Assembly (NCBI GenBank): GCA_016722565.1
Contig: JADKIU010000007.1
Coordinates: 303,679-367,678 of the forward strand
Source of the DNA: Bacteroidota bacterium
Lineage (GTDB): Bacteria > Bacteroidota > Bacteroidia > 2-12-FULL-35-15
DNA length: 64,000 nt
Direction: 5' to 3'
The translations under genes were made by a program, and so were the position numbers. Under the pieces are notes generated by a model, which made no database searches, had not been told where the DNA came from, and saw only the letters and a list, made by a program, of their open reading frames with translations. Shown in pieces: positions 2,389-62,065 of the stretch; within the stretch, counting starts at the first letter, position 1, and each line of letters starts with the position of its first letter.

Positions 2389-3540
2389 TTATTCTTCCAC
2401 CCACCCCACAATATCACTCAAGTTGGTAATGTACAAGGTTGTCCATTTTTTGTTGGTTGTATTCCAAATCGCTACACCTTGCGGATAACGCTCTTCACCC
2501 ATCACGATTTCACTTTGAAAAGCAGCATATCCGCTCACCGTTTTTGCATTCTCCAAACGACACCATTTTTTACCAATCACTTCCAACTCATATAAAATGG
2601 ATCTGCCGTATTTCGGATTTTCATCCGCCTCTAAGAAAAAATTATTTCCAATCGGTTGGTTCACCAACTTGGTAACCATTTTCTTTTTTATATCAATCGC
2701 AAAACGACCTTTTCCACAGGCATACACAACACCTCCATCACTTGCAAATTCAAAAAACGCATTGGCTGCCGTTGCCGGAATTTCTGTTATCTCTCCAATT
2801 TTTTCTATTGAATGATTGATGTTCACTTTATAGATGGTTGCCGACTGCTGATTTTTTGAAAAGTTGGCATACAAAAAAGAAGTATTGTCCAGCCAAAAAA
2901 TCGGAAACTTACGTTTTACATCATCGCCCAACAAGGGCTGTGCTTCGCCAAACCCTGCATCTTTGACCAATACATCTTGTTTTCCGGAAACGGCATAGGC
3001 TGAAATACTAAATGGCTTCGTGGTTTCATCCACCTCCACATCCGGACGAGGCAGCGGATTGTAATTCGCATTCTCTACTTTCCCGAATTTTTCTGTTCTT
3101 AAATCCAAAACCGAATAATACTTTCCTTTAAAAATATCGTTGGTGCGAAAAACAATACTATCTCCTTTAAAAGCGATAAAATCTCCACGCTCTGCTACCA
3201 ATAATTTTTTTGTTTTGATATCAATTACATTTCCGATACTGGTTACCACGTATCGGTTGCGATAAATTCTGTTTTTACCTAAATCGAAACGAACATAATT
3301 TCCGGTAACACCGGCTTTTTGGGTGGGAAGGGAAATAACGGTTTCTTTCGAAACCATTGCTCCATCTACAAAATGATAATTCACTAAATGTTGCAAATTA
3401 TTTGCTGCGGCATTGTCATCATACTCGGCAACAAGAAGAGAAACCTTCCTGCCGGCAGGCAGACCTTCTTTTGGTGGCAATTGAAATGCTACAAAAAAAG
3501 CGAAAACACAAAAGAGAGCAGAGAGTTTGAGTAGTCGCAT
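2389..3540 (-). CDS. hypothetical secreted protein
   Basis: 383 aa with an N-terminal signal peptide (MRLLKLSALFCVFAFFVAF). I recognise no family. It sits between pdxA and pepA on the same strand. Confidence 0.6.
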   Translation of the reverse strand: MRLLKLSALFCVFAFFVAFQLPPKEGLPAGRKVSLLVAEYDDNAAANNLQHLVNYHFVDGAMVSKETVISLPTQKAGVTGNYVRFDLGKNRIYRNRYVVTSIGNVIDIKTKKLLVAERGDFIAFKGDSIVFRTNDIFKGKYYSVLDLRTEKFGKVENANYNPLPRPDVEVDETTKPFSISAYAVSGKQDVLVKDAGFGEAQPLLGDDVKRKFPIFWLDNTSFLYANFSKNQQSATIYKVNINHSIEKIGEITEIPATAANAFFEFASDGGVVYACGKGRFAIDIKKKMVTKLVNQPIGNNFFLEADENPKYGRSILYELEVIGKKWCRLENAKTVSGYAAFQSEIVMGEERYPQGVAIWNTTNKKWTTLYITNLSDIVGWVEE

Positions 3541-6290: not shown

Positions 6291-7505
6291 CTATTTTACA
6301 ATCACATTTTTTATTGTCACCTCACCATTAATTGTTGCTTTCACACGATATGCTCCTTTGGGTTCTCCAGATAAATCAACAACTACATTATTTGAAGAAA
6401 TTGCTTTCTTGAGAACAGTCTTACCGGATATATTGAATACTTCAATCTCTCCTGAAACCTCAATTTGATTGATATCAATTATAAGTTTACCATCACTACT
6501 AGGGTTTGGATAAATTGTCATTTTACTCATTACCTCTTCTGAATTTGAATTCATACTCTTTGGGGGGCAACAGCTAAAACTCGCATACTTTGTTACTAAA
6601 ACATCATCCGTACTTGTAGTACAATCAGAACCGGAAACAGTAAGTGTATACGTTGTAAACGATGAAGTTGGAATCGCATTTGTTGTTGCGCAAGTTGAAC
6701 AGGCTAATCCGGTTGTAGGTGACCAGCTATAAGTAGACCCCGAAGCAGTAGTACCTATCGTAACACCAACGCAACCTCCTGAACAGCATGAACAAGTAAA
6801 CGACTTATCACTTCCTGCATTTGCCGCACAATTCATTGAAACATCATCAATTATAAAGTGTCGCAAATCACTATAATTTCCATCATTGCAAAATACATTA
6901 CAGCCCATCACAAGATAATAGGTGGTTGTAGAAGGAGCAGTCCAATCGTATTCAACTCGATAAAATCCACCGGCTACACTTGTCGATGAAGTTAATACTG
7001 TGCCCTGTGATCTAACATTCCCAAGAATTGCACTTGCAGAAGAGCCAACGGAAGTATTCACCATTGTAATACTAAAAAGATTCATTGGATCCCAGCCGGC
7101 AACTAACGTATTTACATAGGCTGTAATTCGATACGTTCTGCCTGAAGTTACTGAAACAGTCTGATAGATATACTCCGCACTTGCCGTAGAAGTAGGAGCA
7201 AAACCTCTATATTCAATATGCGCATAACCTGTACCTGTTCTCGCTGTGCTTACTTGACAAGACGATGTACCACCCGCTGTTGAATTAAAATAATCAGGCA
7301 AAGTGCTTGTCACATCTGTTGTTGAGTTACAATTTGAATATGGATATGAACTTTTTAAACCATACCAATTTGTCGCTTTCGTAATTGCATAGTTACTCGG
7401 ACACGTTGGAAGAGAGCTGTAGCTTTCAAATCCTCCATTTGAAATTTGTCCAGAAGCTACATTTATTATAATAAATGAGCCAATTAAAAAAAGAAACTTT
7501 TTCAT
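6291..7505 (-). CDS. T9SS cargo protein with a type-A CTD, Cys-rich, function unknown
   Basis: Signal peptide MKKFLFLIGSFIIINVASGQ and a C-terminal Por_Secre_tail-like region (IYPNPSSDGKLIIDINQ...AYRVKATINGEVTIKNVIVK). Confidence 0.7.
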   Translation of the reverse strand: MKKFLFLIGSFIIINVASGQISNGGFESYSSLPTCPSNYAITKATNWYGLKSSYPYSNCNSTTDVTSTLPDYFNSTAGGTSSCQVSTARTGTGYAHIEYRGFAPTSTASAEYIYQTVSVTSGRTYRITAYVNTLVAGWDPMNLFSITMVNTSVGSSASAILGNVRSQGTVLTSSTSVAGGFYRVEYDWTAPSTTTYYLVMGCNVFCNDGNYSDLRHFIIDDVSMNCAANAGSDKSFTCSCCSGGCVGVTIGTTASGSTYSWSPTTGLACSTCATTNAIPTSSFTTYTLTVSGSDCTTSTDDVLVTKYASFSCCPPKSMNSNSEEVMSKMTIYPNPSSDGKLIIDINQIEVSGEIEVFNISGKTVLKKAISSNNVVVDLSGEPKGAYRVKATINGEVTIKNVIVK

Positions 7506-7873
7506 GACATTAGGGTTTTAGTTAATACTATTTTATATTGCTAATTTCCAGAGAATTAGACAAAATTCCATGGACAAAACAATACGCCATCTTACATTAT
7601 GAAAAAGCGCGAAATCATTGATTTTTTAGCAAAAAAAAGCCCTTTTATCACATACACGAAAAACAATTATATCTAAAATACTGTTAATACGCTGGCAATT
7701 GAATGAGACCATCTGCTTCTTTAAATCGAATTAAATAAATATATTTCAGATATAGAGCTTCGTAGGAGCGGCATAATTTGTTTTGATAGCCTTTATTTCA
7801 GACATGTATACAATTCCTAAATTTAGTTTTGTTTTCCATTCTTTATTGGTCTAATTTTATAGAAAAAAACACC

Positions 7874-8959
7874 ATGAAAAAATTATTGATTTTCATTTTT
7901 CTGTCAATTTCTGCCTTTAGTTTCGCTAGCCATAATATGGGAGGAGATATTACCTATAGGTACATAGGAAGTGCTTCATTCCCTAACAGGTACGAAATCA
8001 TTGTAACGACTTATACAAAATGGTTAGATTCTACAAGTGTAGACAGATGTGAACTGAAGTTTATTTTTGGTGCTGGTGACAGTGCTCTTGTTGAGCGCGT
8101 TAATGGGCTTAGCGTTAATTGTCCATCGGCACATGACGGAGAATTAATCGGTGGATGCACAGGAAATGTAAGGATGAATCTCTATACAACTTCCCATGAT
8201 TTTCCTAGTAATGGAATTTATACAATATCGATTGAAGACTACAACAGAAGTTCAGGAATATGTAATCTCATTGATTCTGAAAACCAATCCTTTTTTTTGC
8301 AGACAGAACTAATTATCAATCCATTCTTGGGTAGCAATAATGCACCCGATTACACATCCATTCCTGTAATCTGTGTTGCAAATGGCATCATTTCTTACTA
8401 CAATCCATCAGCAATAGAACCCGATGGAGATAGTTTGTATTATGAATTGATTCCACCAATAGCTAATGGAGTATCGACTGTACTCTATGCTTATCCGCCA
8501 TCAAGCAGTTCGTTTAGCATAAACAATTTATCTGGAACAGTAACCTGGGATCATCCAATGGTGATTTGCTATTACATATTTGACATCCGTATTTCCGAAT
8601 GGAGAAAGATTTCTGGCACCTATTATCTGGTTGGGAAAACCATGCAGGAAGTCTGGGCAGAAGTATCGGTATTGGGTGGAATTAAAGAAAATAATCCAAG
8701 CGTTTCAATAACAGCATTTCCAAACCCATCTAGCGGTTTTATCAATTTCAAAATTGAGAGTGAAGACCAAAACTCGGAATACGAATTGAACATCAGTAAT
8801 TCGTTGGGACAAACCATTCAAACAATCGCAATAAAGAACAATTTAGCGACTTTAGATGAAGGTGAACTTTCAGCAGGAATGTATTTTTATAGCCTTACAA
8901 ACAAAAGAGCAATTGTAAACAAAGGGAAATTTGTTATTTTACAAGGTAATATGAAATAA
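7874..8959 (+). CDS. T9SS cargo protein with a type-A CTD. Its N-terminal module is paralogous to those at 8996 and 26257.
   Basis: The N-terminus (ASHNMGGDITYRYIG...DGDSLYYEL) is shared with the two type-B CTD proteins. The C-terminus (FPNPSSGFINFKIES...GMYFYSLTN) is a type-A sorting domain. The ATG at 7874 is in frame with track ORF 7829. Confidence 0.7.
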   Translation: MKKLLIFIFLSISAFSFASHNMGGDITYRYIGSASFPNRYEIIVTTYTKWLDSTSVDRCELKFIFGAGDSALVERVNGLSVNCPSAHDGELIGGCTGNVRMNLYTTSHDFPSNGIYTISIEDYNRSSGICNLIDSENQSFFLQTELIINPFLGSNNAPDYTSIPVICVANGIISYYNPSAIEPDGDSLYYELIPPIANGVSTVLYAYPPSSSSFSINNLSGTVTWDHPMVICYYIFDIRISEWRKISGTYYLVGKTMQEVWAEVSVLGGIKENNPSVSITAFPNPSSGFINFKIESEDQNSEYELNISNSLGQTIQTIAIKNNLATLDEGELSAGMYFYSLTNKRAIVNKGKFVILQGNMK

Positions 8960-8995
8960 AATCCCTAATTTAGAGTTCTTATTCTGAGGCACTTT

Positions 8996-11731
8996 GTGAT
9001 GAAAAAACATTTACTCTCCATACTTCTTCTTTTGATTGGTTTTTCCAATGCATTTGCGACACATAATCGTGCTGGAGAAATCACTTATAAATACATTGGT
9101 ACTACTGCCAATCCATATAAGTATAAAATCATTGTCACCACCTATACCAAATTTGTAACTAGCTCTACTTCTAATACTGATAAATGCGAATTGATGGTAT
9201 TGTTTGGCGATGGCGACAGTGCTTCTGCACCACGCGTAAATGGACCAGCAGGTGACTGTTCTCCTCTTAAAAATGGTGTGATGATTGGCATCGATACTCG
9301 CCTCAACGTTTATGAAACAGAACATAATTATGCCGGACCTGGTAACTACATTATTAGTATGGAAGACCCAAACAGAAATTCAGGCATTTGTAACATCGTT
9401 AGCTCCGTTGATGTTTCTTTCTTCCTTCGTACCGAATTAGTGATCTCTCCTTTTTTAGTCCAGAACAATTCACCCACTTTGCTCAATCCCCCCATCGACA
9501 ATGCTTGTGTGGGTGTCTGTTTCGAACACAACCCGGGTGCATACGATATTGATGGAGATAGTTTGCATTATAGTTTAAGTGTTTGCTACGCAAATGGATT
9601 ACCACTTGCTTTGTGGAGTTATCCACCCAACATGAACGCCAGCAGCATCAATCCGTTAACAGGTGATTTGGTTTGGTGTGTACCCACCATGATTTGCGAA
9701 TACAACGTAGCAATTGTCATCAAGGAATACCGCTTGTTACCGGGTACCTCAACGCGTTATTATATTGGTTCCGTTTTACGTGATATGCAAATTGATGTAA
9801 AACCTTGTATCAACGATGCTCCGATATTTACTCCTGTAAACGATACCTGCGTGATTGCTGGGAGCAATTTAAATTTCAATGTTTTTGCAACAGATCCACA
9901 AGCCAACCTGCTTACAATTACAGCAACCGGTGGTCCACTTTTATCAACCGAAACACCACCTGCAAGTTTTACTTCATTCCCAGGAATTGGAGCTGCAAGT
10001 GGAACCTTCAACTGGAACCCAAGCTGTACACAACTTCAATTATTACCTTACCTCATTACATTTAAAGCAACGGATGGTGATTTGTCTACCCCTTTGGTGA
10101 ATTTTGAATCCATGTTTATTCGAGTGATTGCACCTGCTCCAACTGGCTTAACAGCAGTTCCAAGCGGATCAAGCATTCTCCTCAACTGGAATTATCCGTT
10201 CTGCGATAGCACTGGAAGCAATCCGCTTAAAAAGTTTTATATCTATCGAAAAAACACTTGTGACCCTTGGACACCCGGACCATGTGAAACAGGAGTGCCC
10301 AGCTATACCGGCTACACACTTATTGGTACTACCAATTATACCATCACCAACTTTATTGATAATAATGGTGGTGCAGGCTTAATCAATGGCGTAGATTATT
10401 CCTATATCGTTGTTGCTTATTATGTTGATGGCTCGCAAAGTATTGCATCGGATCACGTATGTGCCCAATTGGTAAGGGATGTTCCGATTATGACCAATGT
10501 GAGTGTGATGACAACCAACACCAGCACAGGAACCATTTGGACACACTGGGTAAAGCCGATAGGTAATTCAGCCAATCTGGATACCATTATCAATCCGCCA
10601 CCTTACGAATACCGCTTAATGAAAGCAACCGGCTTTAATCCTCCGGCTACAGCATATACATTGGAAACAACTTATACATTTGGTTCTTATACGGCCATGA
10701 CCGATACCGGATTTGTTAGCAACGGATTAAATACGGAAGGCACACCATATACCTTTAAAGTAGATTTCTATTCAAACGGAATTTATAAAGGCTCTACACA
10801 AACAGCATCATCGGTATTTTTAAGCTCTACGCCTGCCGACAAACAAGTAAATTTAACTTGGCAACATTTTGTTCCTTGGAACAATTATGAATATTTTATT
10901 TACAGAGAAACCAGTCCGGGCTCTACCGTATTCAATTTAATTGACAGCACCACCGCATTAACATACGCGGATACCGGCTTGGTGAACGAAGTTGAATATT
11001 GTTACAGAATATTAGCCGTTGGTGAATATTCCGATACATTACTTCCTAAACCATTGCGTAACTATTCACAAATTAATTGTGAAACCCCGGTTGATATTGT
11101 TCCACCATGCGCACCACCATTTGATGTGGTAACGGATTGTGAAGCAACACAAAATACCATTACATGGGTAAACCCAAATACATTCTGTAGTGATCAGGAT
11201 GCGGTGCAAATCAATATTTATTTTTCACCGAATGTAACCGACCCAATGCAATTGGTGTATAGCACAACGGATATGAGCTTAACAAGCTATACACTTCCGG
11301 TGTATTATTTCGAAGGTGTTGTATCCATAGCAGGCTGCTATGCTGTAACAGCAGTTGATTCGGCATTAACCCCTAACGAGAGCGTAATTGTAAATAGAAT
11401 TTGTGTTGACAATTGTCCGGAATACGAATTACCAAACGTATTCACTCCAAACGATGATGGTAAAAATGATTTCTTTACACCACTTCCAGACTGGCGTTTT
11501 GTAAAAGATGTCGACATCAAAATTTTTGATCGTTGGGGATTGGAAATGTTCTCAACCGATGATCCAAATGTATTATGGGATGGTAAAAATAAGGACACAA
11601 AACAATTCTGTTCTGATGGCACCTATTTTTATGTATGTACCGTAAACGAAATTCGTATTGACGGCATCAAACCTCGTGTATTAAAAGGGTTTGTTCAAAT
11701 CATCAAAGAAGGATCAAATCCTGCACAATAA
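8996..11731 (+). CDS. large surface adhesin-like protein with a type-B T9SS CTD (gliding-motility-associated C-terminal domain)
   Basis: 911 aa. N-terminus ATHNRAGEITYKYIG. C-terminus PNVFTPNDDGKNDFF...WDGKNKDT...GTYFYVCTV, which matches the TIGR04131 / CHU_C pattern. Confidence 0.75.
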   Translation: MMKKHLLSILLLLIGFSNAFATHNRAGEITYKYIGTTANPYKYKIIVTTYTKFVTSSTSNTDKCELMVLFGDGDSASAPRVNGPAGDCSPLKNGVMIGIDTRLNVYETEHNYAGPGNYIISMEDPNRNSGICNIVSSVDVSFFLRTELVISPFLVQNNSPTLLNPPIDNACVGVCFEHNPGAYDIDGDSLHYSLSVCYANGLPLALWSYPPNMNASSINPLTGDLVWCVPTMICEYNVAIVIKEYRLLPGTSTRYYIGSVLRDMQIDVKPCINDAPIFTPVNDTCVIAGSNLNFNVFATDPQANLLTITATGGPLLSTETPPASFTSFPGIGAASGTFNWNPSCTQLQLLPYLITFKATDGDLSTPLVNFESMFIRVIAPAPTGLTAVPSGSSILLNWNYPFCDSTGSNPLKKFYIYRKNTCDPWTPGPCETGVPSYTGYTLIGTTNYTITNFIDNNGGAGLINGVDYSYIVVAYYVDGSQSIASDHVCAQLVRDVPIMTNVSVMTTNTSTGTIWTHWVKPIGNSANLDTIINPPPYEYRLMKATGFNPPATAYTLETTYTFGSYTAMTDTGFVSNGLNTEGTPYTFKVDFYSNGIYKGSTQTASSVFLSSTPADKQVNLTWQHFVPWNNYEYFIYRETSPGSTVFNLIDSTTALTYADTGLVNEVEYCYRILAVGEYSDTLLPKPLRNYSQINCETPVDIVPPCAPPFDVVTDCEATQNTITWVNPNTFCSDQDAVQINIYFSPNVTDPMQLVYSTTDMSLTSYTLPVYYFEGVVSIAGCYAVTAVDSALTPNESVIVNRICVDNCPEYELPNVFTPNDDGKNDFFTPLPDWRFVKDVDIKIFDRWGLEMFSTDDPNVLWDGKNKDTKQFCSDGTYFYVCTVNEIRIDGIKPRVLKGFVQIIKEGSNPAQ

Positions 11732-11732
11732 T

Positions 11733-12320
11733 ATGTTTTCCGGAATTATAGAAGTACTTGGGGAAGTTGTTGGCATTCAAAAAGAGCAAAGCAATTTACA
11801 CCTTACCGTAAAATCACTGTTCACACACGAACTCAAGATTGATCAAAGTGTTGCACACAATGGCGTTTGTTTGACCGTTGTTGGCATCCAAAACGACACC
11901 TACACCGTTACTGCAATTGACGAAACCATCAAAAAAACAAACATCGGTTTACTCAACAAAGGAGATGTAATCAACTTGGAACGTTGTTTAAAAGTAGGCG
12001 ACCGACTGGATGGACATATCGTTCAAGGACACGTAGATCAACGTGCCGTTTGCACCAAAATGGAAGAAACTGATGGTAGCTGGACGTTCACATTTGAATA
12101 CGATGCCACAAAAGGCAATGTAACCGTTGAAAAAGGATCTGTTTGTGTGAATGGTGTGAGTTTGACTGTGGTTAATTCAAAAGACAATTCCTTTTCCGTT
12201 TGTATCATTCCATATACGTTTGAACATACCAATTTCAAAACAATCACCCCCGGTGCCATTGTCAACATTGAGTTTGACATTGTAGGAAAGTACATCGCCA
12301 AAATGTTACCGAAAGCTTAA
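11733..12320 (+). CDS. ribE: riboflavin synthase alpha subunit
   Basis: Starts MFSGIIEVLGEV. It has the duplicated lumazine-binding halves (GVCLTVVGI / GVSLTVVNS). The ATG at 11733 lies 1 nt after the TAA of the upstream gene. Confidence 0.85.
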   Translation: MFSGIIEVLGEVVGIQKEQSNLHLTVKSLFTHELKIDQSVAHNGVCLTVVGIQNDTYTVTAIDETIKKTNIGLLNKGDVINLERCLKVGDRLDGHIVQGHVDQRAVCTKMEETDGSWTFTFEYDATKGNVTVEKGSVCVNGVSLTVVNSKDNSFSVCIIPYTFEHTNFKTITPGAIVNIEFDIVGKYIAKMLPKA

Positions 12321-12434: not shown

Positions 12435-14099
12435 ATGAAAAAAACTACTCTTATTAAGTTATTATTTATCGGCTTTGTTCTGCAAGTCTCTTTGGCTTCA
12501 GCTCAAGCAACCTACACCGATATCTACAATATTTTTCAAGCAAATTGCACCACATGTCACGATGCAAGTAGCCCTGCTGGTGGATTAAATTTAATTGCTC
12601 CTTCGGCTACGGTATACACCAGTTTAGTGAATGTGAACCCAAGTAATCCTGCTGCATTGGCAAGAGGCGACAAACGCATCAAACCGGGTGATCCACACAG
12701 AAGCTTTTTGTTACGTAAATGTCAAAATGGTTTGGATCCTGACAATGGATTGGTTTCTGCGGCAGAAGGAAATGTAATGCCGGATGGCGTAGGTGCTACT
12801 CCATTAACAAACAAAGAAATTGAATTAATCCGTCAGTGGATTTATGCCGGTGCTCCTCAAACAGGAGTTGTGGTAGATACTGCGGTTGTGAATCAATATT
12901 ATAACGGGTACGGAATTACAAGCGTTGCTCCTGCACATCCATTGCCAACTGCTCCTGGGTCTTTCCAAGTACACGTTGGGAAAATCTTTTTAGGTGAAAG
13001 TTCTGAAGTAGAATATTTCTTAAAACACAATTTGAATTTACCGGACACATTGGAAGTAAATCGCATTGAATTGTTTTTGTCAACACAATCACATCACTTC
13101 ATCATCCATAAATTTTTACCGGGTGCTGCAGCAAGCTTTACCGATGCATTGCGTATTCAAAATCCATCAACCGGTGCTGGCTCTTCCGATGGCTACAACA
13201 CCATGGTGAGTGCATTCCAAGCATCTCGCAACGATGTATTGCCAATAACAACTGCTTATCAATGGGAAACAAGTACTGTATTGGATTTGAATCACCACTT
13301 CTTTAATTCAAACCCCGATTCAGTTTTAGCTACCGATGTGTATTTTAATGTCTACACACAACCAAAAGGAACAGCTGCTAAAATTATGTACAGCGATATT
13401 ATTACCAACACCAGTATTTTTATTCCGAACAACAGTACCGATGTAACCTTTACAAGAGCAGATTACAATGCAAGTGCTTCAAACATGTGGAACATTTGGT
13501 TGCTTTCGTCACATACACATAAATACGGAGTGGACTTCGATATCTTTTTAAGAAATCCAGGCGGAAGTACCGGCACGCAAGTGTATGAAGGATATTACAA
13601 CAACGACTACACCTTCAATCAAGGTTACTACGATTGGGAACATCCTCCTGTTCGATTATTCGATCCATTGCTGGATGTAAATCCAAGAGATGGCTTGATT
13701 CAACAAGCGAAATTTAACAATGGTGGTCCTGCTTCTGTATTCTTTGGATTAACAACCAACGATGAAATGATGTTGTACTTTGTACAATACACATTAGGAA
13801 CTTCCATTGTAGGAATCAATGAAAATTCCGCGATTGAAAACAAAATCAATTTAAATGCATATCCGAATCCATTCAGCGCAAACACACAAATCTCTTACGA
13901 TTTAAAAGAGAATGCAACTGTGAATGTAGCCGTTTATGATGTATTGGGTAACAAAGTAGAAACACTTGTCAACGAAAATCAAAACAGTGGCAATCATGTA
14001 ATTGATTATGCTGCAAAAAACAAAGCAAAAGGAATTTATCTTGTTGCCGTTACCATTGACGGGCAAGTGTATACCAAACGAATTGTTTTAACTAACTAA
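12435..14099 (+). CDS. T9SS cargo protein with an N-terminal PSCyt1-like (Planctomycete cytochrome C-type) CXXCH module
   Basis: Signal peptide, then NCTTCHDASSPAGGLNL...MPDG...LTNKEIELIRQWIYAGAP, which fits the PSCyt1 (PF07635) pattern. The C-terminus is a type-A CTD (YPNPFSANTQISYDL...GIYLVAVTIDGQVYTKRIVL). Confidence 0.65.
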   Translation: MKKTTLIKLLFIGFVLQVSLASAQATYTDIYNIFQANCTTCHDASSPAGGLNLIAPSATVYTSLVNVNPSNPAALARGDKRIKPGDPHRSFLLRKCQNGLDPDNGLVSAAEGNVMPDGVGATPLTNKEIELIRQWIYAGAPQTGVVVDTAVVNQYYNGYGITSVAPAHPLPTAPGSFQVHVGKIFLGESSEVEYFLKHNLNLPDTLEVNRIELFLSTQSHHFIIHKFLPGAAASFTDALRIQNPSTGAGSSDGYNTMVSAFQASRNDVLPITTAYQWETSTVLDLNHHFFNSNPDSVLATDVYFNVYTQPKGTAAKIMYSDIITNTSIFIPNNSTDVTFTRADYNASASNMWNIWLLSSHTHKYGVDFDIFLRNPGGSTGTQVYEGYYNNDYTFNQGYYDWEHPPVRLFDPLLDVNPRDGLIQQAKFNNGGPASVFFGLTTNDEMMLYFVQYTLGTSIVGINENSAIENKINLNAYPNPFSANTQISYDLKENATVNVAVYDVLGNKVETLVNENQNSGNHVIDYAAKNKAKGIYLVAVTIDGQVYTKRIVLTN

Positions 14100-14120
14100 T
14101 ATCATTCGAATTCATTCATA

Positions 14121-14163
14121 AAAAAATCCCGCTTCGTAAAATTACGAAGCGGGATTTTTTTTA
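14121..14163. terminator. bidirectional Rho-independent terminator between convergent genes
   Basis: Perfect hairpin ATCCCGCTTCGTA-aaat-TACGAAGCGGGAT with an A-run on one side and a T-run on the other. Confidence 0.8.
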
Positions 14164-18168: not shown

Positions 18169-19173
18169 TTAGTGTTTCACAACTTTTCTCACAACAGAAT
18201 TCCCTTTCGAATCATTTATTCGAACAAAATAAATTCCATTCAAAAAATCAGAAATATTTATTTCTGTTTGATTATTTTCTGAATACAACATTCTTCTTCC
18301 AAAAACATCCAATACTTCTATTGAATTAATTTCTAGTTCTGTTTTAATTTGAAATGATCCGGTTGTTGGATTTGGATAAACATTAATATTAATGGATTTA
18401 TAAACCTCATTCAAACCCATGTATAACTGATCGCAATAAATGTTGCTCATGAATGGCGGAGGAGGCCCTCCTGGTGTCACAACCGGAATTCCATTAATGG
18501 AAGCACAATATACATGAAAGCTGTTGACATATTCAAACTCTCCAAAATAACTAAGCGGATTATACAACTGGCCAACTCCTTCAACAAGTGAAGTTACCAC
18601 CATACTCCCTGGGCCACCCGGCTGCATCCAATATTGATCGGTAGTATCAACTAATGCATCTGGAGGCATAAGTCCGTGATAAATACCATTAAAACGAAAG
18701 CGTTTATGGTAAAGACCATCGTGAGGCATCAAAACACTATCAATGGAAGTCACCCATGCAGTATCTAATGTTGCCATCGGAGGCATTTCTGTAACTACCA
18801 ATTGATCATAAAAGCCAAAACCGGAAGTGGCATTCACAGTATCACCAACAGAAAGGTCAAAATCATAAAACACTTTTTCGGTATTGGTAGTAAAAGAATA
18901 GAAATATACTTTCTTATTCAACGTATCATTTCTGATCCCCCCCGTTTTTGAAACAGGCAATACCCCCGAATAAACTATTGCATAATGGTGAGCTCCGATC
19001 AATGTGTCTAAATTAATCTCAGTACGATGAGGAACCCAATAGGAGTCGCCCATCGACAAAGTATAATGGGAATAGCCATAAACAACCATTTTTGATGGAA
19101 ATGGAATATATGATTGCGCTCGAACTCCAATAAAATTAAGCAAGAGAAGGATAATCACTACATTTTTTTTCAT
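18169..19173 (-). CDS. T9SS cargo protein with a type-A CTD, function unknown
   Basis: Signal peptide MKKNVVIILLLLNFIGVRAQ. The C-terminus is VYPNPTTGSFQIKTEL...GIYFVRINDSKGNSVVRKVVK. Confidence 0.7.
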   Translation of the reverse strand: MKKNVVIILLLLNFIGVRAQSYIPFPSKMVVYGYSHYTLSMGDSYWVPHRTEINLDTLIGAHHYAIVYSGVLPVSKTGGIRNDTLNKKVYFYSFTTNTEKVFYDFDLSVGDTVNATSGFGFYDQLVVTEMPPMATLDTAWVTSIDSVLMPHDGLYHKRFRFNGIYHGLMPPDALVDTTDQYWMQPGGPGSMVVTSLVEGVGQLYNPLSYFGEFEYVNSFHVYCASINGIPVVTPGGPPPPFMSNIYCDQLYMGLNEVYKSININVYPNPTTGSFQIKTELEINSIEVLDVFGRRMLYSENNQTEINISDFLNGIYFVRINDSKGNSVVRKVVKH

Positions 19174-19764: not shown

Positions 19765-19898
19765 CCTCACCCCATAATCCCCTCGCGATAAGAGAGGGGC
19801 GTTTGGTGAGAAGGGTATTAAAAATGAAAAGACAAAAAGTAAATAATTAATCAAATCAAAAAGTCCCTCTCCTTTGGAGAGGATTTAGGGTGAGGTCT

Positions 19899-21203
19899 AT
19901 GAACATTAACAAAAATAACTACGAAGCATTTTTCCTTGATTACCACGAAGGAAATCTTTCACCTCAACAGGTGGCTGACTTGTTATTGTTTGTTGAACAA
20001 CACCCCGAGCTTAGAGAAGAATTTGAAAGTTTTGAGAATGTTACTTTAGACGACTTATCAACTATTTCGTTTGATCAAAAATCTTCTTTGAAAAAAGAAA
20101 TCACACTAGAAAACAGAGAAGAGTACTTCATTCGAAGTATTGAAAACACCCTAACACCTGCTGAAAAAAATTTATTAGACGCATTTATAAAACAACATCC
20201 CCAGTTTTTAAAAGAGCTTGAATTATTTCAAAAAACAAGAGTGCCTGCTGACACAACTATCGTTTTTGAAAACAAAGAAGCATTACAAAAATCCACTGCA
20301 GATGATTTGTTAATTGCCTCCATGGAGGGTCTATTAACCAAGCAAGAAAACATCTTCTTAAATCAACAACTAGCTGTTGATGCAGAAATGCAACACAATT
20401 ACAGTTTGTACAAACAAACAAAATTGGTTGCCGACACCACCATCGTTTTTGAAAACAAAGAAGAATTAAAACGTGAAGAACGAAAAATTATTCCGTTCTA
20501 CTTTTATGTTGCCGCTGCCGCTTCCATTGCCTTGTTAATTGGAATGTTCTTCCTCTACAACAGCACCACACAAGAACAAACCTTTGCGGACAAAACAAAT
20601 GAAACAAAAACTGCTCCTGTTGAAAACAATAATTCAACCGCGGTAATAAAAAACATTCAGCCAATTGAAAATAATCCATCCATAAAAAATCAGATGGCTG
20701 CAACAACTTCATCGATTATTAAAAACAAACGCAACAACGACAGCATCGCTAAAACACCTGTTAATGTAAACGAACAACCCATTTTACCAATTGCAGTGAA
20801 CATCCCTGAGAACAAGAAAGAAATTGAACAAGAAAAAATATTATTGGCAAACAACGAGCAAACAAACAAACCAAACACTGCAACTGAACCAACAAACAAC
20901 GATGCCATTGCAAGTATCATTGGAAAATCAAAAACTATTGGTGCATCAACAGGTTACCTTTCATTGCGTGAATTAGCAACCGAAAAAATAAAAGAAAAAA
21001 CATTGGATGAAGAAACCCTTGCCATACAAAAGAAAAATGGTCGCGTTAAACGTTTCTCGGGTTGGGACTTCGCACAAATTGTTACGAGAGGTATCAGCAA
21101 AATGACCGGCAGAGATGTGGAAGTAAAACCAACCTACAGTGATGATGGTGATGTAACAGCTTATGCTTTAGGAAATGGCATTCAAATATCGAGAGGAAAA
21201 TAA
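19899..21203 (+). CDS. putative anti-sigma factor, single-pass membrane protein
   Basis: It sits immediately downstream of the ECF sigma gene. It has one transmembrane segment (IIPFYFYVAAAASIALLIGMFFLY) and an internal duplicated ADTTIVFENKE motif. The ATG at 19899 is in frame with track ORF 19890. Confidence 0.5.
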   Translation: MNINKNNYEAFFLDYHEGNLSPQQVADLLLFVEQHPELREEFESFENVTLDDLSTISFDQKSSLKKEITLENREEYFIRSIENTLTPAEKNLLDAFIKQHPQFLKELELFQKTRVPADTTIVFENKEALQKSTADDLLIASMEGLLTKQENIFLNQQLAVDAEMQHNYSLYKQTKLVADTTIVFENKEELKREERKIIPFYFYVAAAASIALLIGMFFLYNSTTQEQTFADKTNETKTAPVENNNSTAVIKNIQPIENNPSIKNQMAATTSSIIKNKRNNDSIAKTPVNVNEQPILPIAVNIPENKKEIEQEKILLANNEQTNKPNTATEPTNNDAIASIIGKSKTIGASTGYLSLRELATEKIKEKTLDEETLAIQKKNGRVKRFSGWDFAQIVTRGISKMTGRDVEVKPTYSDDGDVTAYALGNGIQISRGK

Positions 21204-23611: not shown

Positions 23612-26119
23612 CTAATTTTTTATAATCTTTTTCGTAACTACATTATCACTTGTAATCACTTGCAAATAATAAATTCCGTTTGCAATTTCAGCGATGTTAA
23701 TATTTTTTGTGTTGATGCCCGGATTACCATCCATCTCTTCTGAATAGATTAATTGTCCGGTTACATTCATCACATTCATTTTTACTTGCTCCGATTTTTC
23801 CATTTGAAATTCCAATGTAAAATCGGTTGTTGCAGGATTTGGATAGACACTCAACAACAATGCATTTTCATTTTCTACAATTCCATAGTTATTGATATTG
23901 AACACTGCAGAAACGGTTGAACAACCCAATGCATTAAACACCTCTACATAATAATTTCCATTTCCGGTAAATTGGAAATTTTGAGTAGTAGCACCAACAA
24001 CAGGTGAACCATTGAAATACCATTGATAAGCAAAATAAGAAGGAGAACACATCAACGAATCGATGCCTTGCGTTAACGTTGGTAAACCAGGATTTCCAAT
24101 CACATAAATTGTAACAGAATCCGTATTGGTGCAACCACCGGTAGCTGTTCCAACAACCGTATACGTTGTTGTAACGGTTGGACCGGCAACAGGGTTTGCA
24201 ATGTTCGGATCACTTAATGAACCAGCAGGCGACCACACATAAGAAACACCACCTGTAGCCAATAAATTTGCGTTTGTACTCAAACAAGTACTGTCATTCG
24301 GACCTGCATTAATTGGTGGCAATGAAAACACAGTCACCGTTTGTGAAGCGGTTGCCGTACATCCTGTTCCGTTGGTGATGGTAACAGAATAAGTTCCGGA
24401 AGTAGAAACTGTAATTGACGCCAATGTATCGGATGCAGAAGTGCTCCACAAATAAGAAGTTCCTGCTGCAGAAGTTAAGGTAACAGAACCACCATTACAG
24501 AAAGAAGTAGGACCACTTGCGCTAATACTTGGTGAAGGAAGTGGAACCACATTCACAACAATCGTATCGTTATCCGTACAACCATTTGCGTTTGTAATTG
24601 CAACAATGTAGGTAGTTGTAACCGATGGATTCGCAATCGGGTTGGCGATATTTGTAAAATTTAATCCGGATGCTGGAGTCCACAAATAGCTTACAGCACC
24701 GGGTGCAGAAGCACTTAACTGAACAGAGCTACCATTACAGATGGTCGTGTCCACACCTGCATCCGATTTTAACTGACAATATTTAATCGTTTCATAATCT
24801 TCGTTAGAACCTAATCCACGGCTCATTCCGGCTATGAATACATTTCCGATAGCATCTACAGAAACAGCCGCTGCTTGATCGGCATTGTTACCCGTACCAT
24901 TGTATTTTGTTAACCATTCTTGTGCTCCTGTTGCATCATATTTAATCGTTAAATAATCGTTGTTTGCACCGGTAGTAAACGAATACCCGGTAATATAAAC
25001 ATTTCCGGAAGCATCCAGTGCAATAGCTTTTCCTTCATCGTATCCGTTGGACGGACCGTTATATCTGGCTGTCCATTGAGAAACCCCTGCATTATCATAT
25101 TTTATTGTAAATGCGTCTTCAGCGGTACTTCCTACACCAACACTTTTTCCTGTAACATATACATTTCCGGAAGCATCCAATGCAATTGCGTTGGCTCTGT
25201 CATAATCGTTTCCGGTTCCATTGTAACGTTGCTCCCATTGTTGAACACCTGCAGAGTTATACTTAACAGTTGCATAATCATAATCTGTCAACACCAATGT
25301 TTGACAATATCCGGTAACATAAACATTCCCGGAAGCATCTACAGCAATTGCGCGTGCTTCATCGTAGTTGGCACTCGGACTGTTATATTGGGAAGCCCAT
25401 TGCTGAGCACCTGCCAAATTGTATTTTACTGTAAGAAAATTAAAATCGTTTGCAGCACTTTGATAGGTATATCCTGCCACATAAGAATCACCGGTAACAG
25501 CATCTACATAAATAGAAAATCCGGCATCAATAGATGCTCCTCCACCTTCAAAACGATTAGCAAATTGTTGAACACCGGAAGAATTGTATCTCACTGTAGT
25601 CGCTGCACTATTAGAACCTGATCCATCACTTGTTCCGGTTACGAATACATTTCCTGCATTGTCTACTCCAACATCCCAAGCCTCATCGGTTGCCCCTGCA
25701 ACATTTGTGTAACGAGAAGCCCATTGTTGAACTCCGGCAGCATCGTATTTTACAGTTGCATAATCATACCCTGTTCCCGCACCACCATAACTCCAACCGG
25801 TAACATATACATTTCCTGAAGCATCCACAGTAATCGCATGAGCTTCATCCAAACTGTTACCTGGTCCGTTGTATTCCGTTCTCCACAATTGAGCACCTGC
25901 AGGATCATATTTAATGGTTACATAATCAAAGTTTCCGCTGGCACCAAGCCCTAATCCAGTCACATACACATTCCCTGCAGCATCCACAAACATATCCTCT
26001 GCCCTATCGATATTGCTTCCTGCACTGGTATAACGCGTTTGCCATTGAATATTAATCTGAGCTTTTGTAATAAAAGAAATGGCCCCGAAAATAAGAGTAG
26101 TAAGTAGAATTTTTTTCAT
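23612..26119 (-). CDS. T9SS cargo protein with SBBP beta-propeller repeats and Ig/PKD-like domains
   Basis: Repeated D(A/S)SGNVYVTG motifs typical of SBBP repeats, and a C-terminal type-A CTD (VYPNPATTDFTLE...GIYYLQVITSDNVVTKKIIKN). Confidence 0.75.
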   Translation of the reverse strand: MKKILLTTLIFGAISFITKAQINIQWQTRYTSAGSNIDRAEDMFVDAAGNVYVTGLGLGASGNFDYVTIKYDPAGAQLWRTEYNGPGNSLDEAHAITVDASGNVYVTGWSYGGAGTGYDYATVKYDAAGVQQWASRYTNVAGATDEAWDVGVDNAGNVFVTGTSDGSGSNSAATTVRYNSSGVQQFANRFEGGGASIDAGFSIYVDAVTGDSYVAGYTYQSAANDFNFLTVKYNLAGAQQWASQYNSPSANYDEARAIAVDASGNVYVTGYCQTLVLTDYDYATVKYNSAGVQQWEQRYNGTGNDYDRANAIALDASGNVYVTGKSVGVGSTAEDAFTIKYDNAGVSQWTARYNGPSNGYDEGKAIALDASGNVYITGYSFTTGANNDYLTIKYDATGAQEWLTKYNGTGNNADQAAAVSVDAIGNVFIAGMSRGLGSNEDYETIKYCQLKSDAGVDTTICNGSSVQLSASAPGAVSYLWTPASGLNFTNIANPIANPSVTTTYIVAITNANGCTDNDTIVVNVVPLPSPSISASGPTSFCNGGSVTLTSAAGTSYLWSTSASDTLASITVSTSGTYSVTITNGTGCTATASQTVTVFSLPPINAGPNDSTCLSTNANLLATGGVSYVWSPAGSLSDPNIANPVAGPTVTTTYTVVGTATGGCTNTDSVTIYVIGNPGLPTLTQGIDSLMCSPSYFAYQWYFNGSPVVGATTQNFQFTGNGNYYVEVFNALGCSTVSAVFNINNYGIVENENALLLSVYPNPATTDFTLEFQMEKSEQVKMNVMNVTGQLIYSEEMDGNPGINTKNINIAEIANGIYYLQVITSDNVVTKKIIKN

Positions 26120-26256: not shown

Positions 26257-29200
26257 ATGAAGAATAAATTACTTCTCCTAATTATTTTTGTCTTCCTTCT
26301 ACCATTTGTTTCAAATGCAACTCACGTTGTGGGTGGATCATTAACATATGAACAATTGGGTGGCTCTACTTACCGTGTTACACTAAAGCTTTACCGCGAT
26401 TGTAAACCAGGAAGTGCTGCGTTCCCTAACCCTGTTACTATTGAGGTGAGAAGAAACTGTGGTGGTACTGCATTACCGGATATTACAATTCCATTCCCGG
26501 GTGCATCCTTAGTACCTCCTAACATCGATACCTGCGCAGTAAATCCAGGCATCTGCTTAGAAGAAGCAATCTATACTCAAGTTGTTACAGGATTACCTCC
26601 AACTCCAGGTGGATACGATTTATATTTCCAATATTGTTGCAGAAACTCAACCCTACTAAATATTGTCGCTCCTTTATCTGCTGGTGAAACATGGTATGCG
26701 CATATTCCTGACAACGGAGTCGTAATTGCAAACAGCAGTCCGAAATGGGTAAACCCTCCTCCCGTATTTGTTTGTCAAGGAAACAACATGTTCGTTGATC
26801 ACAGTGCGACTGATTCTGATGGTGACTCATTAGTTTATTCGCTTTATACGCCTTTCGATGACAATGCAATTACCTATCCCGGTTGCGTTTGGTCTACTCC
26901 TTCAGTTACTTGGTCCAGCACCTATGGTGCCAACAATCCGCTCGATGCCGCCACCCCGTTTTCATTAACAGTCAGTCCTAGTGGTATCATCAACGGTGTC
27001 CCTCCTATTCTAGGTCAGTTTGTGGCCGGTGTGCGTTGCGAAGAATGGCGTAACGGAGTAAAAATCGGAGAGATTTTACGAGATTTCCAATTCAACGTTG
27101 TAAACTGCCCACCTCTTGCTGTCGCCAGCTTTAGCTCTGGTGGAGCATGTAACGGAACAACCATTACCTTTTCAAATACAACAACTCCTGCTGCCAATAC
27201 CTATTTATGGGATTTTGGTGATGGTTCACCAACTTCTACTGTTACCAGTCCGGTGCATACGTATCCTGGTTTAGGAAGTTATACAGCTGTTTTAATTATC
27301 AATGATGGAACGCCTTGTGCAGATACCATGACACAATTGGTAAACATCTCCTACGTGATCTCCGACTTTAGTCATAATGCACCCAACTGTATGGGCTTGC
27401 CAATTAGCTTCAATGATACCTCTTCAGTCGATCCGGGTAGTACCATCACCAGCTGGAATTGGAACTTCGGAGATTTCGGAACAAGTACCCTTCAAGACCC
27501 CACTCATATTTATGCTGCCGGTGGAACCTATAATGTTAGCTTAATTACAGTTACTGCTGCAGGATGCTCAGACACCATTACCTATCCGGTTACCATTCAA
27601 GGAAACCCGATTGCGAATGCCGGTGGTGATACCATCAGCTGTACCAACAACTCTACCATCACATTGGGTGGAACAGTGTTGAATGCAGGAGGCGGTATTT
27701 GGAGCGGTAGTGGTATATTCAACCCAACCGACAGCACATTAAACGCAACGTATACACCAACAGCTGCAGCTATCTTAGCAGGTGCTGATACATTGGAGTT
27801 GATTACCTATGCCAATGCTTTCTGCCCTGCAGATACAGATCAAGTTATTATTAGTTTTTATGCCGGACCAACTGCTACGGCCGGACCAGATTTGTTTGTA
27901 TGTAAAGACACCGCAAGTGTTCCAGTTTGTGCAACCATCACCGTTGCTTCCGGAGGTATTTGGGCAACAACAGGATCCGGAACATTTACAAGTCCGACAT
28001 CTTTATGTACCGATTACATCCCGAGCACAGCTGATACAACGGCAGGCACGGTGATGCTCTATCTTGCAACAACTGGAAACGGAAATTGTATCGCCTCGAG
28101 TGATACCGTTATTGTTACCTTCACAGGAACACCAATCGCTTTAATCACTTCAGCAGATAGCTCCTGCGCAAGCAATCCAATTAACTTGAATGCAAACGTT
28201 ACCACCGGAACTGGTATTTGGTCAACAACCGGAAGTGGTTCTTTCTCACCAAATGACACCACCATCAATGGGGTATATTTACCGAGCCCGACTGATGATC
28301 TTGCAGGAAACGTGACTTTAATCTTTACCTCTACCAACAATGGTGGTTGTCGCTCCAATGCAGACACCATCAATGTAACGTTGATTCCATCACCGGTGGC
28401 AGCCTTCTCAAGCATTAGTGCTTGTCCGCAAGACACCGTTTCCTTTACTGATGGTTCAACCACTGTAGGAACAATCGTTGCATGGAATTGGAACTTTGGC
28501 GATTCCGGAACAAGTACTTTGGAAGACCCAACACATATTTATGCAACAGGCGGACCATTCAACGTTTCGTTGATTGTTACTTCAAACAATGGTTGTGTGG
28601 ATACACTTAATCAAATTGTAAACGTATTCGAAAAACCGATTGCAAACTTTAATGCAAACGGAATTTGTTTGGATGACGGAACAGTATATACAGACATTTC
28701 AACAGTTGGGGGTGGAGCAACCATTGCTACTTGGAACTGGACCTATGGTGACGGAAGTACAAACGGAACGATTCAAAATCCTTCTCACAATTTCCCAACT
28801 GCCGGAACATACAATACGCAATTGATTGTAACCTCCTCTCAAGGATGTATCGATACGGTGGTTCAGTCGGTAGTGGTATTACCCGGACCAGCTGCCGTAT
28901 TTACTTCTGACGACTTTACAGGAAATGTCAATCAGCAAATCAACTTTACGGACCAATCCACCAATGGCGCCATTTCATGGTTCTGGGATTTTGGTGATAG
29001 CTCTTCCGATTCAACATCTACTTTACAAAATCCTTCTCACACCTATGGTGCCGGTGGATATTATGATGTTTGTTTAATTGTAACAGATGCAAACGGTTGT
29101 ACAGATACTACTTGCAGAACAGAAGTAATCTCCATGCCTCCGGATGTTCCAACAGGATTCAGTCCGAATGGTGATGGTGAAAACGACATCTTCTTTGTTT

Positions 29201-29427
29201 ATGGTGGTCCATTCAAAAAAATTGAATTCAGAATTTACAACAGCTGGGGTGAATTGATTTTTGAAAGCACCGATGCGACCGATTGTGGCGGACATACGTG
29301 TGTTGGTTGGGATGGTAAACGTAAAGGTATTGACCAAGCATTAGGCGTATATGTATACACCGTTATTGGAGTAACCGAAGACGATAAGGAACATAAAATT
29401 TCGGGTGACGTTACTTTACTTCGATAA
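26257..29427 (+). CDS. large PKD-repeat adhesin with a type-B T9SS CTD
   Basis: 1056 aa. N-terminus ATHVVGGSLTYEQLG. Several PKD units (WNWNFGD...THIYA.GG.YNVSL). The C-terminus (FSPNGDGENDIFF...WDGKRKG...GVYVYTV...GDVTLLR) matches TIGR04131. Confidence 0.8.
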   Translation: MKNKLLLLIIFVFLLPFVSNATHVVGGSLTYEQLGGSTYRVTLKLYRDCKPGSAAFPNPVTIEVRRNCGGTALPDITIPFPGASLVPPNIDTCAVNPGICLEEAIYTQVVTGLPPTPGGYDLYFQYCCRNSTLLNIVAPLSAGETWYAHIPDNGVVIANSSPKWVNPPPVFVCQGNNMFVDHSATDSDGDSLVYSLYTPFDDNAITYPGCVWSTPSVTWSSTYGANNPLDAATPFSLTVSPSGIINGVPPILGQFVAGVRCEEWRNGVKIGEILRDFQFNVVNCPPLAVASFSSGGACNGTTITFSNTTTPAANTYLWDFGDGSPTSTVTSPVHTYPGLGSYTAVLIINDGTPCADTMTQLVNISYVISDFSHNAPNCMGLPISFNDTSSVDPGSTITSWNWNFGDFGTSTLQDPTHIYAAGGTYNVSLITVTAAGCSDTITYPVTIQGNPIANAGGDTISCTNNSTITLGGTVLNAGGGIWSGSGIFNPTDSTLNATYTPTAAAILAGADTLELITYANAFCPADTDQVIISFYAGPTATAGPDLFVCKDTASVPVCATITVASGGIWATTGSGTFTSPTSLCTDYIPSTADTTAGTVMLYLATTGNGNCIASSDTVIVTFTGTPIALITSADSSCASNPINLNANVTTGTGIWSTTGSGSFSPNDTTINGVYLPSPTDDLAGNVTLIFTSTNNGGCRSNADTINVTLIPSPVAAFSSISACPQDTVSFTDGSTTVGTIVAWNWNFGDSGTSTLEDPTHIYATGGPFNVSLIVTSNNGCVDTLNQIVNVFEKPIANFNANGICLDDGTVYTDISTVGGGATIATWNWTYGDGSTNGTIQNPSHNFPTAGTYNTQLIVTSSQGCIDTVVQSVVVLPGPAAVFTSDDFTGNVNQQINFTDQSTNGAISWFWDFGDSSSDSTSTLQNPSHTYGAGGYYDVCLIVTDANGCTDTTCRTEVISMPPDVPTGFSPNGDGENDIFFVYGGPFKKIEFRIYNSWGELIFESTDATDCGGHTCVGWDGKRKGIDQALGVYVYTVIGVTEDDKEHKISGDVTLLR

Positions 29428-29451
29428 TACATTAGGTTGAGAAGAATTAAT

Positions 29452-30477: not shown

Positions 30478-30479
30478 TT

Positions 30480-43306: not shown

Positions 43307-43412
43307 TTGATTGAGTAATTCTGAAGGAATTCCTGCAGGACAAATTTAAGATAAATGCAGAAACTAATTCAGAATATTTGTAAATTTGATATGGATAAAA
43401 AACGGAAACAAA

Positions 43413-44790: not shown

Positions 44791-44918
44791 TGATATAAAC
44801 AATTAATTTAACATTTTGAACACGTAAGTTTTTACAATTTTGATTTTATTCCAGGCGAAATGTATTGCACATTTGTATCATCAAATTAAAAAACGAAAAA
44901 CAATTAAATCTTAATACC

Positions 44919-61664: not shown

Positions 61665-62065
61665 GTATATTAATAAGATAAATAATTTTGAAACGAATTC
61701 AACAAACAATGTCTATTCACCATTTTTTATATTCCTACCTCCAACCCAAAGAGTAAATATTTGCCTTTATTTTTAATACTTACAAAGATTAAATTCACTA
61801 GACATATATCTAAATTACTTACAATTTATGAGATATCATAGGATATTGATGAATATTTTAAACTAAAAATGAACATTAGACATGTATATATATCAGAAAA
61901 ATCGAAAAAGAGGTTCACGTGTATACTTTTAAAACACAACTATTCAACAATATCAATACATAGAGACACATAACAAAGAATTAGACATATATACTATTAA
62001 CCGAATCCCTAAATTTTACCCCTTGTTTCTACCATAGCTTTGTACCAGTTAAATGCTTTGGCTCG

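Follow-up and report, generated by a model that had tools for sequence, protein, structure and literature searches.

The window considered here is a 64-kb stretch (64,000 nucleotides in all) of contig JADKIU010000007.1, which belongs to a metagenome-assembled genome (MAG) of the Bacteroidota; our subject is one gene within it, a complete open reading frame (ORF) at 12435..14099 on the forward (+) strand that runs from ATG to stop and encodes 554 amino acids plus the stop codon. Upstream of it, on the same strand, is ribE, for riboflavin synthase, and beyond it are a convergent metF, for methylenetetrahydrofolate reductase, and lepA. Between the gene and metF there is a hairpin resembling an intrinsic terminator (14120..14161, assigned to neither strand), with a 19-bp stem flanked by an A-run and a T-run, which is likely to act as a bidirectional terminator. 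The protein is identical to MBL0330917.1, the entry from this Bacteroidota MAG whose GenBank label is merely ‘T9SS type A sorting domain-containing protein’, T9SS being the type IX secretion system. A preliminary description of the DNA had pointed to the motifs NCTTCHD, GGLNL, MPDG and LTNKEIELIRQWIYAGAP, all of which are indeed present in the ORF. We think it reasonably probable, from sequence comparison and structure prediction, that the gene encodes a secreted three-module enzyme, in which a c-type cytochrome, a copper monooxygenase core of the type found in PHM and dopamine beta-hydroxylase (DBH), and a T9SS C-terminal sorting domain (CTD) follow one another.

The protein starts with a Sec signal peptide, residues 1-23 (MKKTTLIKLLFIGFVLQVSLASA; 12435..12503, +), which is visible in the sequence and is modelled as a helix over residues 2-21. 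Signal peptide cleavage in Bacteroidetes is known to follow a ‘Q-rule’, and the residue directly after the signal peptide is Q24, which is at least 90% conserved in the family alignment (A1); cleavage would be expected before this near-invariant glutamine.

The mature protein would then begin with a domain of residues 24-145 (12504..12869, +), similar to FoxE, PccH and PSCyt1, that is predicted, from its sequence and its modelled fold, to be a monoheme class-I c-type cytochrome. Its heme-attachment motif is C38-T-T-C41-H42 (12546..12560, +), invariant in A1, in which H42 is the predicted proximal axial ligand. Conservation of these residues among relatives had been set beforehand as a test of the heme-binding proposal, and it was borne out: C38 is found in 253 of 253 non-gap sequences, and C41 and H42 in 251 of 254 each. 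The structure prediction that the preliminary description had also proposed gave a confident model of the domain alone (pLDDT 93.1, pTM 0.87), with a helix at domain residues 3-13 preceding the CXXCH motif. The predicted fold matches only heme-c proteins, of which FoxE and PccH are the closest. When the domain profile was compared with the Protein Data Bank (PDB), the matches were to cytochromes c6 (best E 0.015), with both the CXXCH helix and the axial-methionine segment aligned; M115 (12777..12779, +), which stands in an ‘MP’ motif, falls together with the proline and the following helix on the c6 segment ‘AMP...L..eI..v..yvLa’. It is because of this alignment with the axial-methionine segment that M115 is predicted to be the distal ligand of the heme.

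There is exactly one heme motif in each protein of the family, but the spacing of its two cysteines varies, with 130 sequences having CX2CH, 124 CX3CH, 86 CX4CH and one CX5CH; P0038 (CTVGCH) and P0047 (CNAGGCH) are examples of the longer forms. The distal position also varies. In the 263-sequence set it is methionine in 211, cysteine in 22 and some other residue in about 19; 21 of the 22 cysteines are in the CX2CH clade, and E, A, V or I occurs in a few more sequences. CX3CH and CX4CH are known, though rare, as heme-c attachment motifs, and c hemes with His/Cys ligation exist.

The domain had been assigned in the preliminary description to PSCyt1 (PF07635), a domain typically paired with DUF1549 and DUF1553, and in this it did not hold up. 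The match of the full protein to PF07635 scores 14.9 bits and covers residues 38-60, corresponding to profile positions 1-23 of 59; the N-domain by itself reaches 20.0 bits, still below the gathering score of 22. Neither DUF1549 nor DUF1553 was matched anywhere in the protein at E values up to 10, and strict membership of PSCyt1 was rejected on these grounds. Amongst 48 relatives, 26 matched PSCyt1 (best E 5.6e-06) and 23 matched Cytochrome_CBB3 (best E 1e-05), and because the two are matched about equally, ‘PSCyt1-like’ is to be taken as a sequence flavour and not as family membership. What is shared with the planctomycete PSCyt1 proteins, which occur with PSCyt2/DUF1549 and PSD1/DUF1553, is a CXXCH motif with a G-x-L-x-L segment after it; they come from another phylum, and their partner domains are not the PHM-like core of the present case.

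Segments in common with the domain, namely PGDP..S and MP...(W)I..GAP, are found in FoxE from Rhodobacter ferrooxidans SW2 (PDB 5MAB), a diheme cytochrome of the c type, although by itself the likeness in sequence does not reach significance (E 0.11-0.16). FoxE has His/Met heme ligation and is a putative Fe(II) oxidase (PMC10654088). It differs in having two hemes and in being a periplasmic, stand-alone protein encoded in a foxEYZ operon, whereas here a single heme domain is fused to what would be a copper enzyme.

The part of the protein that follows had been called a module of unknown function of about 400 amino acids. A fused central module is certainly present, but it is smaller (about 320 amino acids, residues ~150-470) and it no longer appears to be of unknown type. 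The analysis turned to it because a weak match to PF03712 (Cu2_monoox_C) fell inside it. A full-length AlphaFold2 model, made from a 34-sequence alignment, had a mean pLDDT of 85.3 and a pTM of 0.72, with pLDDT of about 90 in the central module. When this was compared with the PDB using Foldseek, the top 31 matches were all DBH or PHM (E 6e-12 to 1e-7, probability 1.0, ~318 aligned columns); human dopamine beta-hydroxylase, 4ZEL, was the best (E 6.3e-12), rat PHM was also amongst the 31, and unrelated jelly rolls appeared only after them, at E 1e-6 or worse. The predicted fold is thus the two-domain beta-sandwich of the catalytic core of PF01082 + PF03712 enzymes. Its N-terminal sandwich, residues ~150-312 (12882..13370, +), would be the subdomain of CuH, the electron-transfer copper, and its C-terminal sandwich, residues ~313-460 (13371..13814, +), on which the PF03712 and fold matches fall, would be that of CuM, the copper that activates O2. 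A PNGase F-like module without copper was considered for this part of the protein and rejected.

There is also evidence from sequence profiles. PF03712 is matched at E<0.1 by 25 of 34 relatives, with a best value of 5.8e-06, and a precomputed match to it is present in two database relatives. In a comparison by hhalign with a single PHM sequence, the rat protein as deposited in the PDB (in which chain residue i is PAM residue i+44), the probability was only 3.5%, and hence an alignment of the PHM family was built from 32 animal sequences (A3). Against this, the core-only alignment of the present family (A2, 48 sequences) gave a probability of 85.8% (E 5.4e-06, 233 columns), with both PHM subdomains covered; the corresponding values in global mode were 87.2%, E 4.4e-07 and 277 columns. 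On the strength of these profiles and of the predicted structure, we conclude that the central module is homologous to the PHM/DBH core.

The ligand sets of CuH and CuM in PHM, and the separation of ~11 Å between the two coppers, are established (PMC12164859), and the hhalign alignment allows counterparts to be named. S-H220-H221-F is aligned with V-H107-H108-M, S-H360-T-H362-K-Y-G with V-H242-T-H244-H-L-G, and T-x-D-E-M445-M with S-S-D-E-M314-C. Conservation was counted over 263 sequences, down to ~35% identity. H220-H221 (13092..13097, +), aligned exactly with the HH pair H107/H108 of PHM, are predicted ligands of CuH, each present in 262 of the 263. H360-T361-H362 (13512..13520, +), followed by G365, corresponds to H242-T-H244, the two histidines being predicted CuM ligands (260/263 each). 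The predicted thioether ligand of CuM is M445 (13767..13769, +; 259/262), in a D-E-M motif that aligns exactly with DEM314; the preceding E444 is conserved in 261 sequences. H288 (13296..13298, +; 261/263), two residues off the column of PHM H172, is a candidate for the third ligand of CuH. The ligand residues, H288 included, are conserved in at least 98% of the sequences, and their columns have an entropy of 0.04-0.11 bits as against 1.5-3.5 bits in neighbouring columns.

With this the reading of the protein shifts, as far as sequence and models can indicate, from a surface protein that binds heme or a ligand to a cytochrome-fused copper monooxygenase in which the predicted ligands of both copper sites are conserved. 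The surface redox or ligand-binding function proposed in the preliminary description had the right direction as regards redox, and a module of the heme-c type is indeed fused to a T9SS signal; what it overlooked was the predicted catalytic copper core.

Two relatives in A1, P0099 and P0107, have lost the H-x-H of CuM (SSLTY / SSLTN) and have DETM in place of DEMM, while keeping the heme motif and the HH pair. They are possibly pseudo-enzymes, or proteins with a changed metal site.

Residues around the substrate site set the family apart from PHM, the catalytic core of PAM (PDB 1PHM/1SDW), despite the profile–profile homology (probability 86-87%) and the exact alignment of the HH, HTH..G and DEM motifs. 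An aromatic residue is kept five positions before the first CuM histidine, where PHM has an invariant phenylalanine and the window protein has W355 (253/263). In PHM, R240, N316 and Y318 bind the carboxylate of the peptidylglycine; their counterparts here are S358 (elsewhere in the family S, T, Q or Y), L447 and F449, positions that are variable amongst members. Because the PHM residues are absent, the protein does not qualify as a strict peptidylglycine hydroxylase, and that specificity was rejected. Sequence identity to PHM is 13-17%, the third CuH histidine is not exactly aligned, and the disulfide cysteines of PHM are missing, the whole window protein having three cysteines. It is also bacterial, of T9SS type and fused to a cytochrome c, and has no PAL domain.

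With DBH, tyramine beta-monooxygenase and MOXD1 (PDB 4ZEL), the likeness extends to architecture, since in DBH too an N-terminal accessory domain precedes the core on the same chain. DBH, however, has a DOMON domain in that position and uses ascorbate as its reductant. In the window protein the N-terminal domain is instead a predicted cytochrome c with covalent heme, and a T9SS CTD takes the place of the dimerisation domain. By its fold and its ligand set the core falls within the PHM/DBH superfamily. Since the Pfam scores fall short of membership and one CuH histidine is not exactly aligned, it has been classed as a divergent bacterial branch that would work like PHM and DBH, and not as an orthologue.

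The third module, residues 476-554 (13860..14096, +), is a type-A T9SS C-terminal sorting domain, as the preliminary description had claimed. PF18962 (41.8 bits, cutoff 27) and TIGR04183 (48.6 bits, cutoff 23) both match residues 476-551, and the fold matches are to the CTDs of mirolase and NucA. The protein has a Sec signal peptide and there is a T9SS gene in the window, as is to be expected of T9SS cargo, and export is predicted. In longer members of the family the only domains inserted before the CTD are Ig, PKD, FN3, SprB or SdrD-B stalk domains, an arrangement typical of surface display; no carbohydrate-binding module was found amongst these extra domains.

The three-part arrangement is widespread. 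A word-indexed search returned more than 800 homologues, and all of the 120 that were listed are of ~550 amino acids and have PF18962. The names given to them in the source databases are ‘T9SS type A sorting domain-containing protein’, ‘hypothetical protein’ and ‘mono/diheme cytochrome c family protein’. With residues 25-470 as the query, from which the CTD is excluded, phmmer was run exhaustively over 1.84 billion cluster representatives; there were 1591 matches at E<=1e-3, 445 at E<=1e-10 and 232 at E<=1e-30. Clustered at 50% identity, the family comprises over 230 clusters. Of the 150 best representatives, nearly all cover both the cytochrome and the central part, from which it follows that the fusion is a conserved unit; the junction between the two modules, GAPQTGxVVDT, is also conserved.

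Amongst the species genomes of GTDB, 181 stretches encode relatives, and 77 loci were kept for locus analyses. All 77 are from uncultured Bacteroidota MAGs (Bacteroidia, Chitinophagales, Flavobacteriales, Sphingobacteriales, Saprospiraceae); the closest relative is 86% identical, and in the 77-locus comparison close relatives share the synteny of the window. Tandem paralogues, in two to five copies, occur at 17 of the 77 loci (for example L053:5917-13522, L045:7986-13574 and L048:7833-11436), and all of them keep the full set of heme and copper ligands. The arrays suggest diversification of substrate or of redox properties.

The following scheme is proposed for how the protein would work; in it we infer, from sequence and models, the occupancy of the heme and copper sites, the direction of electron flow, the monooxygenase chemistry and the location at the cell surface. 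The apoprotein would be exported by Sec, and heme would be attached in the periplasm through C38 and C41 and ligated axially by H42 and M115, to give a monoheme cytochrome. Bacteroidota use a cytochrome c maturation pathway of the system-II, CcsBA type; no CcsBA-type maturation gene was found within the 64-kb window. Copper would be loaded into a non-coupled binuclear core, with H220, H221 and probably H288 binding CuH, and H360, H362 and M445 binding CuM. The folded, cofactor-loaded protein would then be passed by the T9SS to the cell surface or the medium. There the cytochrome would take single electrons from an external reductant and pass them to CuH, so that the fused heme would replace the supply that animal enzymes obtain from ascorbate, cytochrome b561 or DOMON. 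As in PHM and DBH, CuM would bind O2 and abstract hydrogen, and a C-H bond in some substrate outside the cell would be hydroxylated.

By analogy, the nearest functional precedent for such a relay is CjX183. This secreted c-type cytochrome domain of Cbp2D from Cellvibrio has been found experimentally to reduce and activate copper LPMOs (PMC8981238). Both in the pairing of CjX183 with AA10 LPMOs and in the fungal relays from the cytochrome of cellobiose dehydrogenase (CDH) to LPMOs, a secreted heme domain delivers single electrons to an extracellular copper oxygenase, as would be the case here. The difference is that those relays consist of separate proteins, with a mononuclear histidine-brace copper enzyme, whereas here the heme domain and a binuclear core of the PHM type would be on one polypeptide.

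Several points weigh against the interpretation as a cytochrome-fused monooxygenase, which as a whole rests on sequence and predicted structure. The PF03712 match of the window protein itself (residues 317-453, 14.1 bits, E 0.032) is below the cutoff of 23, and in the Pfam scan the protein had no match to PF01082. Amongst PDB sequences, neither PHM nor DBH was reached by HMMER, whether the profile came from the whole family (A1) or only from its core (A2), and it was for this reason that profile–profile comparison was used. It is N286 that sits in the column of PHM H172, with H288 two residues further on in the same strand, in a stretch of low confidence, and the settings of hhalign made no difference to this; comparison of N286-x-H288 with Q170-x-H172 of PHM suggests a register shift of two residues, by which H288 would be the equivalent of H172. 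At the heme site, a Cys-Cys spacing that ranges from 2 to 4 residues is atypical for a single orthologous site, and in ~20% of members the distal methionine gives way to Cys, Glu, Ala, Val or Ile. A cytochrome exposed at the surface would depend on an external electron donor. No neighbour family recurred in more than 14 of the 77 loci when their ORFs were clustered, and consequently the operon context points to neither a substrate nor a reductant. Lastly, no cultured host was found, all 77 loci being from MAGs and the contig of another relative, P0077, being a metagenome assembly.

The main rival is a reversal of electron flow, in which electrons taken by the copper core from a substrate, or from Fe(II)/Mn(II), would leave through the cytochrome to an acceptor in the surroundings or at the cell surface; instead of a monooxygenase that inserts O2, the protein would then be an oxidase or dehydrogenase acting outside the cell, or an electron-uptake module. 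The closest structural relatives of the N-domain lend themselves to this, as they are PccH and FoxE, the latter with His/Met hemes and putatively an Fe(II) oxidase (PMC10654088), and no partner that might supply reductant is encoded nearby. The conserved set of HH..H and HxH..M ligands is, however, the signature of the O2-activating enzymes PHM and DBH. Added to this, we know of no member of the PHM/DBH fold that acts as a dehydrogenase. We regard reversed flow as improbable.

Two further alternatives would dispense with one or other of the cofactors, and we give each of them little credence. One retains the proposal of the preliminary description, a heme module of the PSCyt1 type joined to a module without catalytic function, so that the protein would carry heme at the surface, bind a ligand or shuttle electrons but would have no oxygenase activity. 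It draws on the conservation of CXXCH, on the confirmed CTD and on the place of PSCyt1 as one of the two best Pfam matches to the N-domain in relatives, but it has to contend with a core that is clearly PHM/DBH-like and whose six predicted metal ligands are all under strong purifying selection, as well as with a PSCyt1 score below threshold and the absence of DUF1549 and DUF1553. The other supposes that the Cys-Xn-Cys-His motif binds no heme and is a redox-active dithiol or a copper site, in a cytochrome-like fold that has lost its heme, and that through thiol chemistry it might supply the core with copper or with reducing equivalents. A spacing of 2, 3 or 4 residues within one family and the replacement of the distal methionine in about a fifth of members would both be explained in this way; the histidine immediately after the second cysteine is nevertheless invariant, the fold matches heme-c proteins exclusively, the axial-methionine segment aligns with that of cytochrome c6, and the longer CX3CH and CX4CH motifs, rare as they are, have precedent in heme-c attachment. 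That the protein is a catalytically dead structural protein or adhesin, keeping a PHM-like jelly-roll scaffold in the manner of PNGase F-like lectin domains, is very improbable: P0099 and P0107 did lose the HxH motif, but the ligand columns are almost invariant amid variable neighbours and the tandem paralogues all retain the full ligand set.

If the protein is a cytochrome-fused monooxygenase, its interest is partly mechanistic. How electrons arrive at CuH in PHM and DBH, and how they cross the ~11 Å gap to CuM, is debated (PMC12164859). Animals rely on cores of this kind for the synthesis of noradrenaline and of amidated peptide hormones, and the fusion would be a self-contained enzyme of the PHM type with a built-in electron donor that spectroscopy can follow; stopped-flow methods, photo-triggering or the natural Met/Cys heme variants could then give a direct measure of electron entry. 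To the proteins secreted by uncultured Bacteroidota, a group of major polymer degraders in lakes and soils, it would add a family of oxidative enzymes that has gone unannotated, and it would exemplify a c-type cytochrome exported as T9SS cargo. Specialists in copper enzymes or in the T9SS would find it surprising. Databases do not annotate the family of cytochrome–PHM-like fusions as an enzyme. In the literature covered by our search, which is weak evidence as most subscription journals were outside it, there was no description of a bacterial cytochrome c–PHM fusion and no report of a c-type cytochrome as T9SS cargo, and the tandem arrays, the restriction to uncultured Bacteroidota and the variable CXnCH and Met/Cys heme site of such fusions were not described.

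A broader proposal, which we put forward only tentatively and consider rather unlikely, is that the family represents a hitherto unrecognised class of self-sufficient extracellular heme–copper oxygenases of freshwater and soil Bacteroidota. The FoxE-like cytochrome would harvest electrons from the environment, from Fe(II), reduced humics or phenolics, and the PHM-type CuH/CuM core would oxidise recalcitrant extracellular material; tandem paralogues would serve different substrates, and the CX2-4CH and Met/Cys variants would tune the redox potential. Such a class would do, on one polypeptide delivered by the T9SS, what the CDH–LPMO pair does in fungi.

Some observations on gene neighbourhoods may be added. 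At eight loci of a subclade of ~40% identity, a divergently oriented gene 140-260 bp upstream encodes a lipoprotein that has a heavy-metal-associated (HMA) domain (PF00403, 46.6 bits, motif GMTCPSGC); these are L036, where the gene is at 7320-7724 on the minus strand, L037, L041-L043, L047, L054 and L067. In six more (L050, L056, L059, L062, L068 and L071) an HMA lipoprotein is encoded no more than 2.5 kb from the family gene; there is none in the 64-kb window. The lipoprotein is a candidate copper chaperone, and would fit with a need for copper delivery. The gene for P0077 lies on a circular metagenome contig of 4.2 Mb, with a gene for an FNR-like FAD/NAD-binding reductase 10 bp upstream and another T9SS cargo gene following it; this arrangement (L078:5281-5991 and 7737-9182) was not conserved in the other loci.

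Within the window, a scan for sigma-70 promoters gave no more than the level of shuffled sequence (6 found, 6.2 expected) and was not used. Three sizeable ORFs, at 2389-3540 (-), 19890-21203 (+) and 60114-61709 (-), encode 383, 437 and 531 amino acids and, at the thresholds applied, had no match in Pfam or NCBIfam. The riboflavin synthase ORF, 11691-12320, was mechanically given a TTG start that overlaps the upstream gene; the true start is likely to be the ATG at 11730 (MFSGIIE...), where the NCBIfam match begins.

The window is unusually dense in T9SS cargo, with at least 10 other ORFs that have type-A or type-B/CHU_C sorting domains in the 64 kb. Those bearing a CTD include 6291-7505 (-), 7829-8959, 8996-11731, 18169-19173 (-), 23612-26119 (-), 26257-29427, 40338-41312 (-), 43386-44735 and 44865-46076. 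Several of the CTD proteins have no other recognisable domain, an example being the 911-residue type-B protein encoded directly upstream. A T9SS membrane protein of the PorP/SprF type is encoded at 29437-30477. It stands within a set of three genes at 26257-32543, where it is preceded by a 1056-residue PKD-repeat protein with a CHU_C type-B domain and followed by an OmpA/PD40 protein (30480-32543), and the set looks like a cassette of cargo and dedicated PorP-like adaptor.

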